From Candidatus Aminicenantes bacterium (lineage in GTDB: Bacteria > Acidobacteriota > Aminicenantia > UBA2199), in contig CAVXTN010000005.1 of assembly GCA_963764745.1 (NCBI GenBank), forward strand, positions 422,207 through 486,206: DNA of 64,000 bases, given 5' to 3'. Numbering within the stretch: position 1 is the first letter of the stretch; the number at the start of each line of letters is the position of its first letter. Under the pieces are notes generated by a model, which worked only from the letters and a program-made list of their open reading frames with translations, was not told where the DNA came from and searched no databases. The translations under genes were made by a program, and so were the position numbers. Shown piece after piece: positions 27,688 through 47,705 of this stretch.

Positions 27688-29213
27688 ATGGCGATCAAAA
27701 TCGACGGCGACAACCTGAGCCTGGAACAATTCGACCAGGTGGCCCGCGGGAAAAAGCGCGTGGAGCTGTCGCCCGCCGCCGTGGCCAAGATCAGGAACTG
27801 CCGGTCGGTCCTGGAAGGCTTCCTGCATTCCGACAAGCCCTATTACGGCATCAACACCGGTTTCGGCGCCCTGGCCCAGCGCCGCATCGAGAAAAAGGAC
27901 CTGAAGAAACTGCAGAAGAACCTGATCAAGAGCCACACCGCCGGCGTCGGCCCGAACCTGCCGGCCGATATCGTGCGCGGCATCATCCTGCTGCGGGCCA
28001 ACGTCCTGGCCAAGGGCTACAGCGGCGTGCGCCTGGAAGTGGTGCGGCTGCTGCTGGACCTGCTGAACAAGGATATCAGGCCCCTGATCCCTTCCAAGGG
28101 ATCGGTGGGCGCTTCCGGCGACCTGGCGCCGCTTTCCCACCTGGCCATGGTCCTGATCGGCGAAGGCGACGTCGTGTACCGCGACCGCGAACAGAACTCG
28201 GCCGCGGCTTTCAAGCAAGCCGGCCTGCAGCCGCTGGTGCTCCTGGAAAAGGAAGGCCTGGCCCTGATCAACGGCACGCAGGTGATGACCGCCATCGGGA
28301 TTTTCAACCTGCGCGAGGCCGAAAACCTGGCCAAAGTGGCCGATATCGCCGGCGCCATGACCTTCGAGGCCCAGCTGGGCAATCCCTCGCCTTTTTGCGA
28401 GGAGATCCAGAATGTCCGCCGCCATCCCGGCCAGATGGAGAGCGCCGGCAACATCCGGCGCTGACCAAGGACTCGCCCCTGTGGAACTCCCACCAGGGCC
28501 GGAAAAAAGTGCAGGATGCCTATTCCGTGCGCTGCATTCCCCAGGTGCACGGGGCGGCGCGCGACACCCTGAAGTACGTGCGCCGCGTCCTGGAGATCGA
28601 GACCAACTCCGCCACCGAGAATCCCCTGATCTTCCCTGACCAGAAGATCATCCTCTCCGGCGGCAATTTCCACGGCGAGCCGGTGGCTTTCGCCATGGAT
28701 TTCCTGGGCATCGCCATGACCGAACTGGGCAACATCTCCGAGCGGCGCATCGACCGCCTGATCAACCCCGCCTCCAACATGGGGCTGCCCAATTTCCTCG
28801 TGGCCGACAACGGCCTGAATTCAGGCTTCATGATCGTTCACGTCACGGCCACGGCCCTGGCTTCGGAAAACAAATCCCTGGCCCATCCGGCTTCGGTGGA
28901 CAACATCCCCACGTCGGCCAACCAGGAAGACCACGTCAGCATGGGCACCATCGGCGCCCGCCAGGCGCGCGAGATCATCGGCAACCTGACCCACATCCTG
29001 GCCATTGAATTGATGGCCGCGGCCCAGGCCCTGGATTTTTACGAACATAAAAGCTCGCCGCCGCTGGAAAACGTGAAAGCGCTGATCCGCAAGCAGGTGC
29101 CCTTTTTGCATGAAGACACGCGCATGGACGTCCATATCCGCCAGATCGTCGACCTGATCGAAAGCGGCAAGCTGATCGCCGCCGCCGAAGCAACGGGCTT
29201 GCGGCTCTCGTGA
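27688..29213 (+). CDS. hutH: Histidine ammonia-lyase (frameshift near 28455)
   Basis: YGINTGFG, LIKSH (SH specificity pair), GSVGASGDLAPL (ASG for MIO), QDAYSVRCIPQVHG, GGNFHGEP, SANQEDHVSM. Confidence 0.93.
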
Positions 29214-42614: not shown

Positions 42615-43221
42615 TTAGCGTAGCGGCTGGCGGATGATGGTCTTCCACTTGGCGGGGTCGGCCTTGCGGATGTCGGAGAGGTAGATTTCGTGGTGCTTGC
42701 CGGAGAGTTTACCGATTGAAGACAATGAAAGAGTGCACTTTGGCAACCGTGGGACCCTCGGAAGTGAAGGGACCGATGTGCAGGATCTGCGCGCACTTGC
42801 CTTCGGCGAACGGTTCGTAGCGCAAGCGGGCGAGGGCGGGCAGGTTCTTCTTTTTTTTCACCTCGGCGATGGTGTCGCACACCAGCGCCGTGGAGACGAA
42901 CTCGGGCTGCATGATCATCATGGTCCATTTCCAGCCCGACTTGTCTCGAGCCGAGAACGCGGCCATGTCGTCGGCCCACCACAGCCCCTCCAGCGGCGGC
43001 ACGCCGTAGTCGATGGCCAGGGTATTCCTGACCTTGAACTTGATGGCGTAGGCCACGGAGAAGAGCGCCTCGACCGCCTCCTGGTAGGCCGGCGCCGTGT
43101 TGGGGTCGCCTTGGCCGTCGATCATCAGGAAGTTCATGCCCGGCACCTCGACCAGGGCCACATCCTTCGCGGAAGGCTGGTAAAGATACTTAAGCTCTTT
43201 TTTAAGATCGATCTTTGTCAT
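42615..43221 (-). CDS. GyrI-like small-molecule-binding domain protein (frameshift near 42715)
   Basis: KIDLKKELKYLY, FLMIDGQGDPN, PLEGLWW, HIGPF; alternative frame ends HHEIYLSD.RKADPAKWKTIIRQPLR*. Confidence 0.85.
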
Positions 43222-43279: not shown

Positions 43280-43362
43280 GTAGGGGCACGGCGCGCCGTG
43301 CCCTAAATGAATCGTATCGTGCGCAAGGGAAAATGCAAGGGCGGGAATAACCCCACCCCTAC
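43280..43362. repeat. Inverted pair of GTAG-footed REP-like hairpins (REP doublet)
   Basis: GTAGGGGCACGGCGCGCCGTGCCCT (43280..43304, +) and GTAGGGGTGGGGTTATTCCCGCCCT (43362..43338, -); both 25 nt, 33-bp spacer. Confidence 0.75.
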
Positions 43363-43373
43363 CGCTATTAAAC

Positions 43374-44902
43374 CTAATACGTCTTCAGCTCGCCGATGGC
43401 GCTCTCGACCGCGTGCAGGATGTCGCGCTTCTTGACCGTCTCCATCATGGCGTTGTGGTCGGGGTAGAGCGGCCGGTCCTCGTCCAGGTGGGCGACGACC
43501 TTGCGCACCGCGTCCTTGGCGGCCAGGGTGCCCTTGCCCGGGGTGAACTCGCGGAAATCGAGGGCCTGGGCGGCGGCGATGAACTCGATGCCCAGCACGC
43601 CGTAGGCGTTGTCGATGATCTGCCGGGTCTTCAGCGCCGTGTTCATGCCCATGGAGACGAAGTCCTCCTGGTCGGCGGCGGCCGGGATCGACTGGATCGA
43701 GGCGGGCATGGACAGGATGCGCTGCTCGACGATCAGCATGTCGGCCGTGTACTGGCTGAGCATGTGGCCCGGAATACATGCCCGCGCCCTTGGTCAGGAA
43801 GGCGGGCAGGCCGACGCTCAGGGCCGGGTTGAGCAGGCGGTTCAGGCGCCGCTCGGAGATGACGCAGGCCATGGTCACGCAGGCGCCCATCATGTCCAGC
43901 GGCACCGAGATCGGCGAGCCCTGGAAGTTGGCGCCGGTCAGGACCACCTTGTCGTCGGGCAGGAAGATGGGGTTGTCGCCCACGCCGTTGAGCTCGATCT
44001 CGATCTGGCTGCGCGTCCAGCGCAGCTGGTCGCGGGCGGCGCCCAGCACCTGCGGCGTGGAGCGCATGCTGTAGGCGTCCTGCACCTTGACCTTGACCTT
44101 GCCCAGCAGGTCGGAGCCCTCGATGATGTGCTTGATGTTCTCGGCCGAGGTGACCGCGCCCTGGAAACCGCGCAGCTTGTGCAGGCGGGCGTCGTAGGGC
44201 TTCATGTTGGCCATCAGCGCCTCCAGGGTCATGGCCGCGGCGATCTCGGCCTGCTTGAGCAGCCGCTCGGTCTCGTAGATCTGCAGGCAGGCCATGCCGT
44301 TGATCAGGTTGCTGCCGTTGATGGCCGCCAGGCCGTCGCGGGCCTTGAGGCCCGGCACGGGGATGCCGGCTTTCTTCATGGCCGCGGCGCCGCTCAGGCG
44401 CTCGCCCTTCGAAAAAGGCCTCGCCCTCGCCCATGAGCAGCAGCGCGATCTGGCTCATGGGCGCCAGGTCGCCGCAGGCGCCGACGCTGCCCTTGTTGCA
44501 GACCACCGGCGTCACGCCCTTGTTCAGCATGTCCACGTAGGTCTGGGTGATGTCGGGCCGGCAGCCCGAATAGCCGTTGGCGTGGACGTTGATGCGCGCC
44601 AGCATGGCCGCCCGCACCTCGGGGATGGGCACCGGCGTGCCGATGCCGGCCGCGTGGTTGTAGATCAGGTATTTCTGGAACTGCCCGACCTGCTCGTCGG
44701 TCAGCACCACCTCGGAAAATTCGCCGATGCCGGTGTTGACGCCGTACATGATCTCGCGGGCCTCGATGCGCTTCTCGATGAAGGCGCGGCACTTCTTGAT
44801 CCTTTCCACGGCGTCGGGATGGAGCTCGACCTTCTCCAGGCCGTAGGCCACCTTATACACATCTTCGATCTTCAGGTTCTTTCCGGTCACGACAATCGCC
44901 AT
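43374..44902 (-). CDS. Second MIO-family aromatic amino acid ammonia-lyase (HAL-like) with Ala-Cys-Gly motif; frameshifts near 44400 and 43770
   Basis: [57 protein letters not shown]. Confidence 0.9.
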
Positions 44903-44948
44903 TTGTCCTCCTTTGATATTATGGGATGTATTTTTTTCAGCAAGGGTC

Positions 44949-44977
44949 ATTGTATGCAAATCCAGCGCTTTTGGCAA
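44949..44977 (-). promoter_or_regulatory. Sigma-70-type promoter for the second ammonia-lyase
   Basis: TTGCCA-N17-TACAAT on the minus strand, about 47 bp upstream of the ATG. Confidence 0.5.
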
Positions 44978-45064
44978 CCGTCTGCGAATATTTTGACCGG
45001 GCGGATGCGGGCGGCCCTTGACAGAAATGGTATAATGAATCCTGGATCAAACAAGGAGAAAGAA

Positions 45065-46933
45065 ATGGAAAACGAAAAGGAACAAACATTCGAATTTCAG
45101 TCCGAAGTCAAGCAGCTGCTCGACATCCTGGTATACTCGCTTTATAAAAACAAGGAAGTTTTCCTGCGCGAGCTGCTGTCCAACGCCGCCGACGCCCTGA
45201 ACAAGATGCAGTTCGAGATCCTGACCGAACCCGCCCTGCGCCGACAAGGACCAGGAACTGAAGATCACCATCAGCCGTCGACAAAAAGCACGGCAAGCTG
45301 GTGGTCGAGGACAACGGCATCGGCATGAGCAAGGAGGAGCTGGTCGGCAACATCGGCACCATCGCCCATTCCGGCACGCTGGACTACCTGAAAAAGATCA
45401 GCGAGTCCCCGGCCAAAGGCCAGGTGGACCTGATCGGCAAATTCGGCGTGGGCTTTTATTCCAGCTTCATGGTGGCCAAGGAGATCCATATCGCCAGCAG
45501 GTCCTGGCGCCCAGGACAGCCAGGCCTGGCTGTGGAAATCCAAGGGCGAAAGCAGCTACACCATCGAGGAAACGGAAAAAACCGGGCGCGGGCACGCGCA
45601 TCGAGCTGTTCCTTGAAAAAAGATGAAAAAGAATTCCTGGAAACCCACCAGCTCAAGCACATCATCCTGAAGCACTCCAAGTTCGTCCCCTTCCCCATCT
45701 ACCTGGAGGGGGAAAAGATCGAGCGCAAGGAGGCCATCTGGACCCAGCCCAAGTCCAAGCTGAGGACAAGGATTACGCCGAGTTCTACAAATTCTTCGAA
45801 AACACCCAGGAGGAGCCGGAGACCTACCTGCACCTGTCGTCCGACGCCCCGGTGCAGTTCACCGCCGTCCTGTTCGTGCCCAAGACCTCGTTCGAGCTGC
45901 TGGGGCTGATGAAGGCCGAGCCCGGCGTGGATCTCTATTCCAAGAAGATCCTGATCCAGAAAGGCTCCAAGGACATCATGCCCGAGTACCTGCGCTTCGT
46001 CAAAGGGGTCATCGATTCCGAGGAGATCCCGCTGAACATCTCGCGCGAGACCATCCAGAACAACGTGCGCATCGACAAGATCAAAAAGCACGTATTGAAA
46101 AAACTCCTGGAACATCTGGAAGGGCTCAAGGCCAAGAATCGCGAGCAGTACCTGAACATCTGGAAAAATTTCAGCAAGAATTTCAAGGAGGGCGCGGTCA
46201 GCGACTATGACAACCGGGAAAAACTCTCGCAGCTGCTGCTCTTTGCCAGCTCCAAGACCCCGGCAGACCAGCTGACCGACCTGCGAGGAATACGTCGGGC
46301 GCATGCCCGAGGGGCAGAAGGAGATCTACTTCCTGGGCGGCAGCGACCGCCAGACAATCGAAAAAAACCCGGCCCTGGAGATCTTCCGCAAGAAGGATTA
46401 CGAAGTCCTCTACCTGCTCGATCCCCTGGACGAATTCGTCCTCGACCATTTGCATGAATACGACAAGAAAGCCTTCAAGATGGCCGAAAGCGCCGACATC
46501 CCGCTGGAGGAGAAAGCCGGGGCCGACGGACGCGGCCATGGCCAAGGACGCGGAGAACCTGATCATCTATCTGAAGACGATCTACGGCGAGCAGATCCAG
46601 GACGTGAAGATCTCCAAGCGCCTGACCGACAGCCCCTGCCTGCTGCTCAACCCGGCCGACGGCCCGTCGGTGCAGATGGAAAAGATCATGAAAATGGTCA
46701 ACAAGGACTACCAGCTCGGCAAGCGCGTCTTGGAGATCAATCCCGCCCACCCCCTGATCCGCAAGATGGTGGCGCTGCACAAGAAAGACCCGGCCCTGCC
46801 CCTGCTCAAGAACCTGGCCCTGCAGCTGCTGGACAACATGAAGCTGCGCGAGGGGATATTGAGCGACACCGAGGCCGCCATCGCCCGCATCCAGCAGATC
46901 ATGCTCGACGCCGGCGGACCGGCCGGCCAATAG
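45065..46933 (+). CDS. htpG: Chaperone HtpG (Hsp90), multiple frameshifts
   Basis: [79 protein letters not shown]. Confidence 0.95.
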
Positions 46934-46963
46934 AATTGATTCAGCGGCCGCGAACGGGACGGC

Positions 46964-47705
46964 TCAGCGAAAAATGGGTGACGCCTCGGGGTCGAAGGGA
47001 TTGGTGCGGATGGCCAGGGAGAAAAGATAGGGGTAATCGTGCTTCAGGTGGCTCATGTAGGCCAGCCATTCCAGCACCAGCAGGTGGAAGGCCCGGCGCA
47101 GGTCCTGGGCCAGGTGCTGCAGGTCGGCCTCGGGCAGCCTGCTGAAATCTTCCCGGTAGACCAGTTCATCGGTCAGGTGAAAGACCGCCCACAAAAGGTC
47201 GGTGAACTTGTCGTGCTCGAGCAGGTTGGTGTTGCCCAGCAGGGAAAGCAGAAAGTCCCGGCGCGCGGTCAGGAAAACCTTCAGCTCCGGCAGGCTGCCG
47301 CCGCGGCTGTCGATGGCGTAGGGAAATTCCGCCAGCTGGCCGCGCAAGCCGGCTGAAATCCTTGTCGGCCCAGCGCCGGTCATGCAAAACCAGGGCCTTC
47401 AGTCCTGCTTCGTTTTTTTCAAAGCGAAGGAACATCTTGAGAAGCTCGCCGCCCACCTCGCTGAAGAACGTGCCGATGACCATGTTCATTTTCTTCAGCT
47501 TGGCCTTTTTCTCGCGGTTGCCGAGCAGCTGGTTGATGATCAGGGTGACGAAAAGGACCTGGAAGGGCAGGAAGGCGATATCGCCCAGCAGGTATTCGAA
47601 AATGTAATGCGCGTCCCGGAAGAGCAGGAAGTGCAGCATGTACAACCCGGCCGAGACCAATACCAGGACAAACGACAATACCACCTGCCATTTTAAATTT
47701 TTCAT
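46964..47705 (-). CDS. Conserved hypothetical membrane protein (frameshift near 47345)
   Basis: Two N-terminal TMs; GDIAFLPFQVLFVT, NMVIGTFFSEVG, NLLEHDKFTDLLWAVFHL, YPYLFSLAIRTNPF. Confidence 0.7.

Follow-up and report, generated by a model that had tools for sequence, protein, structure and literature searches.

The window, by which we mean the whole stretch of 64,000 nucleotides analysed here, encodes two ammonia-lyases, a canonical hutH and a relative at 43374-44902 in which the tripeptide that should give rise to the MIO cofactor reads Ala-Cys-Gly (ACG) instead of Ala-Ser-Gly (ASG). This raises the question of whether the cysteine is genuine and, if so, which reaction such an enzyme would catalyse. 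Our analysis indicates that the ACG gene is likely to encode a histidine ammonia-lyase (HAL; L-histidine to urocanate plus ammonia) of a distinct PF00221 subfamily, with an MIO derived from Cys; histidine as the substrate and the maturation are what we infer from sequence comparisons.

The gene lies on the minus strand, where the sequence reads from an ATG at 44902 to a TAG at 43376-43374, and a plus-strand reading of 43374-44902 was dropped because no gene is there. The sequence-only reading had placed a lyase gene in this interval; the lyase is present, but not as a single open frame, since the span 44902..43374 comprises 1529 nt (509 codons plus 2 nt) and the window copy reads in three successive frames. 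These pieces cover successive positions of the PF00221 profile and therefore represent one gene with two +1 shifts. Its features, in the direction of transcription, are as follows (G000 is the assembly of this window).

44949..44977, minus strand: sigma-70-like promoter, TTGCCA, 17-nt spacer, TACAAT (consensus scan, 10/12 matches)
44907..44913, minus strand: ribosome-binding site aaggagg, a few bases 5' of the ATG at 44902 (direct reading)
44405..44902, minus strand: coding piece A, codons 1-166, with Tyr53, Asn82-His83 and Ala142-Cys143-Gly144 (PF00221 positions 1-157, E 3e-56)
44471..44479, minus strand: MIO-precursor codons GCC TGC GGC, Ala142 Cys143 Gly144, with the Cys codon at 44476-44474 (sequence)
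44405..44410, minus strand: first frame break, one extra base in gaaggg (~44409), an insertion private to G000 against 11 congeners
43771..44403, minus strand: coding piece B, codons ~166-376, with Asn195, Gln274/Tyr277/Arg280 and Ala324-Asn-Phe-Gln327 (PF00221 positions 158-372, E 2e-67)
43766..43770, minus strand: second frame break, one extra base in gggcc (~43767), an insertion private to G000 against 11 congeners
43374..43766, minus strand: coding piece C, codons ~378-508 plus TAG, with Asp410-Gln-Glu412-Asp-Phe414 (PF00221 positions 377-466, E 1e-23)
43335..43362, minus strand: terminator-like hairpin of 12 pairs, then ATTTTCCCTT, 12 nt past the stop (consensus scan)

Both promoter hexamers were kept in the intergenic alignment of the congeners, and the (A/G)AGGAGG upstream of the start codon was kept in 11/12 aligned loci. 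The ACG lyase, which is oriented divergently from the neighbouring htpG, thus looks like a monocistronic unit with its own putative promoter, ribosome-binding site and terminator-like hairpin. A further ATG, at 44950 upstream of the start codon, shares the reading frame of the lyase and overlaps the -10 hexamer, and no separate conserved leader mini-ORF was seen upstream of the lyase in the 12-genome alignment. Two other elements were observed around the gene. Between the lyase terminator and a GyrI-like gene (42709-43221, minus strand) there is a perfect 20-bp GC-rich palindrome, GGGCACGGCGCGCCGTGCCC, at 43284-43303, which is not followed by a T-run. In addition, the htpG-lyase intergenic region contains the motif ATTATACCAT-(4 nt)-TGTCAAG (~45064-45083), kept in 12/12 congeners; read in the htpG direction, it presents TATAAT just 7 nt after TTGACA, a spacing too short for a standard sigma-70 promoter, and its role may be that of an extended -10 element or of an operator controlling htpG.

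At the triad itself, the minus strand reads ggc gcc tgc ggc gac (G141 A142 C143 G144 D145), and GCC TGC GGC was identical in 11/11 congeneric orthologues. The sequence-only reading had named a sequencing error in the Cys codon as the finding that would overturn it. Such an error can be discarded, because the codon is shared by the 11 congeners and TGT is also used in the clade to which the enzyme belongs (TGC 19 times and TGT 4 times among the loci examined); the errors of this copy sit elsewhere in the gene. Within the clade, position 143 was Cys in 127/137 sequences and Ser in 10/137, and nothing else, while Ala142 and Gly144 were invariant across the 137 sequences and the GSVG-A-x-G-DLAP loop around them was fixed. 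Among the 120 best database relatives, none of them below 81% identity, 113 carried ACG and 8 ASG, and 16 clade representatives from other families of the class Aminicenantia (60-72% identical) comprised 14 ACG and 2 ASG. Four canonical HutH genes taken from this class were ASG (4/4), and the best 150 representatives of 50%-identity clusters contained 122 ASG, 8 SSG, 6 ACG and 1 TSG.

The assignment of the ACG enzyme to the PF00221 fold is unambiguous, an intact orthologue matching the profile over its full length (540 bits, profile positions 1-466). The clade protein scored above the cut-off of the NCBIfam HAL subfamily NF006871 (540.4 bits vs 524) and below that of the hutH equivalog TIGR01225 (520.6 bits vs 539.15); the canonical paralogue, represented by its intact orthologue P0122, exceeded both cut-offs (689.9 bits with TIGR01225). 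The scores gave no support for a TAL, PAL or 2,3-aminomutase, every NCBIfam equivalog of these enzymes remaining far under its cut-off (Tyr 2,3-mutase, 366 vs 501; D-beta-Phe mutase, 350 vs 800; FlxA TAL, 335 vs 700; PAL, 208 vs 519). The best solved relative was PDB 7tqr, a 'probable histidine ammonia-lyase' (residues 3-493, E 5e-94), and a look-up in the ESM Atlas gave nothing beyond automatic names.

Pairwise alignment of the ACG enzyme with the canonical HutH of the same lineage gave 40% identity. The canonical hutH of the window (27688-29213, plus strand) carries SH, ASG, GGNFH and ANQEDH, with one frameshift near 28400-28460, and comparison with it confirmed the motif differences that had been pointed out from the sequence, NH for SH, ANFQ for GNFH and DQEDF for NQEDH. 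These differences characterise the whole clade: Asn82 was found in 128/137 sequences and Ala324, Gln327, Asp410 and Phe414 in 137/137 each, where canonical HutH has Ser, Gly, His, Asn and His, respectively. In total, the clade and canonical HutH can be told apart at 31 positions, including the active-site-motif changes S82N, G324A, H327Q, N410D and H414F. The catalytic residues, also as previously claimed, are kept (Tyr53, Asn195, Gln274/Tyr277/Arg280, Phe326 and Glu412), and together with His83, Ala142 and Gly144 they showed no variation among 137 clade and 115 canonical sequences. Of these, Gln274/Tyr277/Arg280, Phe326 and Glu412 correspond in Pseudomonas putida HAL to Gln277/Tyr280/Arg283, Phe329 and Glu414, respectively. 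His83 and the equivalent of Glu414 bind the imidazole in the P. putida enzyme and distinguish HAL from PAL and TAL; in the Ser-His selectivity pair, the clade thus keeps the His and mostly has Asn in place of the Ser. As a side observation, the clade gains a conserved Cys135 (P0001 numbering), eight residues before the MIO precursor, where canonical HutH has Pro, and loses the conserved Cys that canonical HutH has after the catalytic Arg (C281S, same numbering).

The phylogeny of ACG variants, suggested earlier as a check, yielded a distinct PF00221 clade: a 44-row group stood apart from canonical HutH with 99-100% support, and position 143 changed between Ser and Cys at least 9 times on an 80-row tree. 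Two ACG representatives, P0206 and P0210, were nested in the canonical HutH group and represent independent origins of the Cys variant. P0206 belongs to a metagenome hut operon (L042:4457-7536) with a urocanase, two amidohydrolases, an ABC transporter and two tandem PF00221 genes, of which the first is ASG and the second, P0206, is ACG and falls inside the canonical group. Furthermore, the copy of the window's genus shares 81-84% identity with proteins assigned to at least eight other phyla, including Cloacimonetes, KSB1, Ignavibacteria, Armatimonadetes, Calditrichaeota, Marinimicrobia and Zhuqueibacterota, but just ~70% with its counterparts in sister genera of the family. It nested in a multi-phylum subclade in the trees, and an AU test rejected its grouping with the copies of its own family with p = 4e-5, a value that overstates the case because the group was named after seeing the tree. 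For the canonical HutH of this lineage, the identity drops to 54-59% once other phyla are compared. These comparisons suggest cross-phylum lateral spread of the ACG lyase, with the caveat that metagenome bins may carry wrong taxonomic labels.

The distribution of hut genes bears on the function. Among 121 sampled Aminicenantia genomes, a homologue was found in 119 and hutU in 116. In family f3, hutU was present in 24/24 genomes, and 23/24 had a single lyase match, which was of the ACG clade. In G105, G086, G135, G100 and G064, five Aminicenantia genomes that are nearly complete (one is a single contig), a family-profile search gave exactly one PF00221 gene each, of the ACG clade, and each also has hutU and a hutI above cut-off; two genomes reached via hits attributed to other phyla (G041 and G042) likewise had hutU and a sole PF00221 gene that was of the clade. 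In G064, hutU (TIGR01228, 851 bits) ends 13 bp before the ACG-clade lyase in an apparent hutU-lyase operon, and this hutU scores as a plain urocanate hydratase, not as a thiourocanate hydratase. On the parsimonious reading, those organisms that have a clade member as their sole lyase would use it as their working HutH. The string in G064 (L039:679-4892) continues with a cysteine synthase/cystathionine-beta-synthase-like PLP gene, the gaps being 13 and 15 bp; the position of a sulfur-metabolism gene right after a Cys-precursor lyase may be a coincidence.

In other genomes the ACG lyase is accompanied by a canonical paralogue. In the window genome and in its genus, g1, it occurs alongside a canonical HutH that scores highly, and both paralogues occur together in roughly 40/121 genomes of the class (hand tally of the table); since canonical HutH is present in the window genome, the ACG lyase is not needed to complete the pathway there. 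From this coexistence the sequence-only reading had proposed a different substrate, a proposal that the wider sampling does not support, because His83 and Glu412 were found in 137/137 clade sequences, the gene is the sole lyase beside hutU in many genomes (with hutI where checked), and in G064 it adjoins hutU itself. A shifted substrate (an aromatic amino acid, or a modified histidine such as methyl- or thio-histidine), at any rate where the enzyme stands beside canonical HutH, would agree with the coexistence, with the score under the hutH equivalog cut-off, with the location away from hut neighbours in most genomes examined and with the 31 clade-specific positions, which include neighbours of catalytic residues and an ANFQ motif that presumably resembles the NFQ of PALs. 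We nonetheless regard it as unlikely, given the invariance of the two histidine-binding residues, the pairing with plain urocanate hydratase instead of thiourocanate hydratase and the scores with the PAL, TAL and aminomutase models, all far below their cut-offs. In the genomes keeping both paralogues, a shifted substrate preference or redundancy is possible. It also seems improbable that the clade is a separately evolving histidine-family lyase, whose Cys maturation and 31 residues would suit anoxic reducing cells and which would act on a modified histidine beside the canonical paralogue; if this were true, identities of 81% or more between proteins assigned to at least eight phyla would mean that a gene of selective value had been passed on laterally more than once.

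The function cannot be read from context alone: on the three contigs examined, the neighbours were gatD/E-like genes, SAM-cycle genes and htpG, and no gene neighbourhood was conserved across phyla. Regarding the canonical hutH of the window, 5 bp separate its start from the gene upstream, a DAO-family FAD oxidoreductase (PF01266; 26553-27683, plus strand), which is sarcosine-oxidase-beta/glycine-oxidase-like and under all equivalog cut-offs; on the related contig L017, an acyl-CoA dehydrogenase lies upstream of hutH instead.

We also considered whether the two frame breaks are genuine and the window copy a pseudogene that lost its function recently, made redundant by the canonical hutH. Two frameshifts within one gene and a functional paralogue in the same genome would fit this idea, which we find very unlikely in view of the state of the assembly and of the orthologues. 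The neighbouring htpG (HSP90-family chaperone; 45140-47145, plus strand) reads in about four frames and carries 6 private one-base insertions and 1 deletion against the 11 congeners, so that core or essential neighbours are equally broken; elsewhere in the genome the canonical hutH is in 2 frames, hutI in 4 and the open frame of hutU is shortened. In the 12-genome alignment, the ~2.9 kb over the ACG lyase and htpG contained 9 private one-base indels, 8/9 of them insertions. The assembly, with 15 contigs and 3.5 Mb, has an estimated completeness of merely 71.65%. The orthologues of 11 congeneric genomes share 90-97% DNA identity, and most of the full-length copies are intact single frames of ~508 codons that read FFEGER (F-E-G-E-R) across the first break point and MYSGHM (Y-S-G-H-M) across the second. 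Removal of one base per break gave a single 508-codon frame that is 94-96% identical to the intact orthologues, with 59-82 synonymous and 20-32 non-synonymous codon differences from them, a mostly synonymous pattern unlike that of a decaying pseudogene. Because htpG next to it carries seven more private indels, the two frameshifts are most likely one-base insertion errors of an indel-rich assembly, and gene breaks in this assembly should not be taken as biology.

The proposed HAL subfamily would have as its signature A-[C/S]-G together with Asn82, ANFQ and DQEDF. The MIO (4-methylideneimidazol-5-one) electrophile requires a dehydroalanine-type exocyclic methylene at residue 143, for which Ser loses water and Cys loses H2S. 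In the ACG enzyme it would be formed autocatalytically from Ala142-Cys143-Gly144, backbone cyclisation coming first and elimination of H2S, rather than H2O, following, and the mature cofactor would be the same as in Ser-type enzymes. Catalysis would then proceed as in HutH, with Tyr53, His83, Asn195, Gln274/Tyr277/Arg280, Phe326 and Glu412. That MIO could plausibly form from Cys had already been put forward for this gene, and the comparisons support it: the Ser/Cys replacements recorded on the tree took place with the flanking loop unchanged, and the fact that only these two residues alternate in an otherwise frozen loop fits both as mere precursors of the same dehydroalanine. In addition, Langer, Lieber and Retey are said to have described in Biochemistry in 1994 that an engineered P. 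putida HAL, S143C, matures to fully active enzyme with loss of H2S, which speaks against a Cys143 that stays in place. Relatives of HAL that work without MIO do exist (ergothionase, PDB 6s7j, and the lyases in 10.64898/2026.04.22.720169), but it is highly improbable that Cys143 is not eliminated, leaving an enzyme without MIO, as in the trimethylammonia-lyases, or one using the thiol itself, as those lyases are without the whole triad and the 137 clade sequences have just the two dehydroalanine-capable residues at 143 between an invariant Ala142 and Gly144.

Cys is the majority natural state at this position in a large and very conserved clade, the apparent working HutH of many uncultured anaerobes. 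Annotation rules that demand Ser would mislabel its genes, and clade relatives have already been given database names such as 'phenylalanine ammonia-lyase' or 'aromatic amino acid lyase'. The clade also offers a natural system to study MIO maturation via loss of H2S. The mature ACG enzyme probably does not differ chemically from ordinary HAL, which leaves little biological surprise: the clade is a natural variant of a known enzyme. In the literature searched, we found no description of a natural Ala-Cys-Gly ammonia-lyase and no characterised or assayed member of the ACG clade.

Lastly, the ACG clade can be placed among the known systems of the PF00221 family. In MIO-dependent lyases the textbook tripeptide is Ala-Ser-Gly (or Thr/Ser-Ser-Gly), and reviews and recent papers still derive MIO from Ala-Ser-Gly. 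A 2026 preprint states that this triad is required in all characterised ammonia-lyases and also describes MIO-less lyases, relatives of HAL, that do not have the triad (10.64898/2026.04.22.720169). These trimethylammonia-lyases, which include ergothionase (PDB 6s7j) and histidine betaine lyases, are PF00221 relatives that convert histidine derivatives into urocanate-type products; in contrast to them, the ACG clade keeps the context of the triad, with Cys or Ser at its centre. The solved relative PDB 7tqr has MIO modelled at the same place as the ACG triad, carries GNFH and NQEDH like canonical HutH and falls outside the ACG clade. The engineered S143C P. putida HAL shares with the clade a Cys at the central MIO position, but the former is a laboratory point mutant, whereas here Cys is the natural majority. 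The closest parallel in function would be HutH (EC 4.3.1.3; P. putida HAL, PDB 1b8f and 1gkm), with which the clade has in common the PF00221 fold family, a length of ~508 residues, coinciding numbering at Tyr53, His83 and 142-144, all catalytic and histidine-binding residues and the company of hutU and hutI. It differs from canonical HutH in its ~40% identity, a Cys instead of a Ser precursor, the 31 clade-specific substitutions, a score below the TIGR01225 cut-off and an identity of at least 81% across proteins assigned to eight or more phyla, where the canonical enzyme falls to 54-59%.
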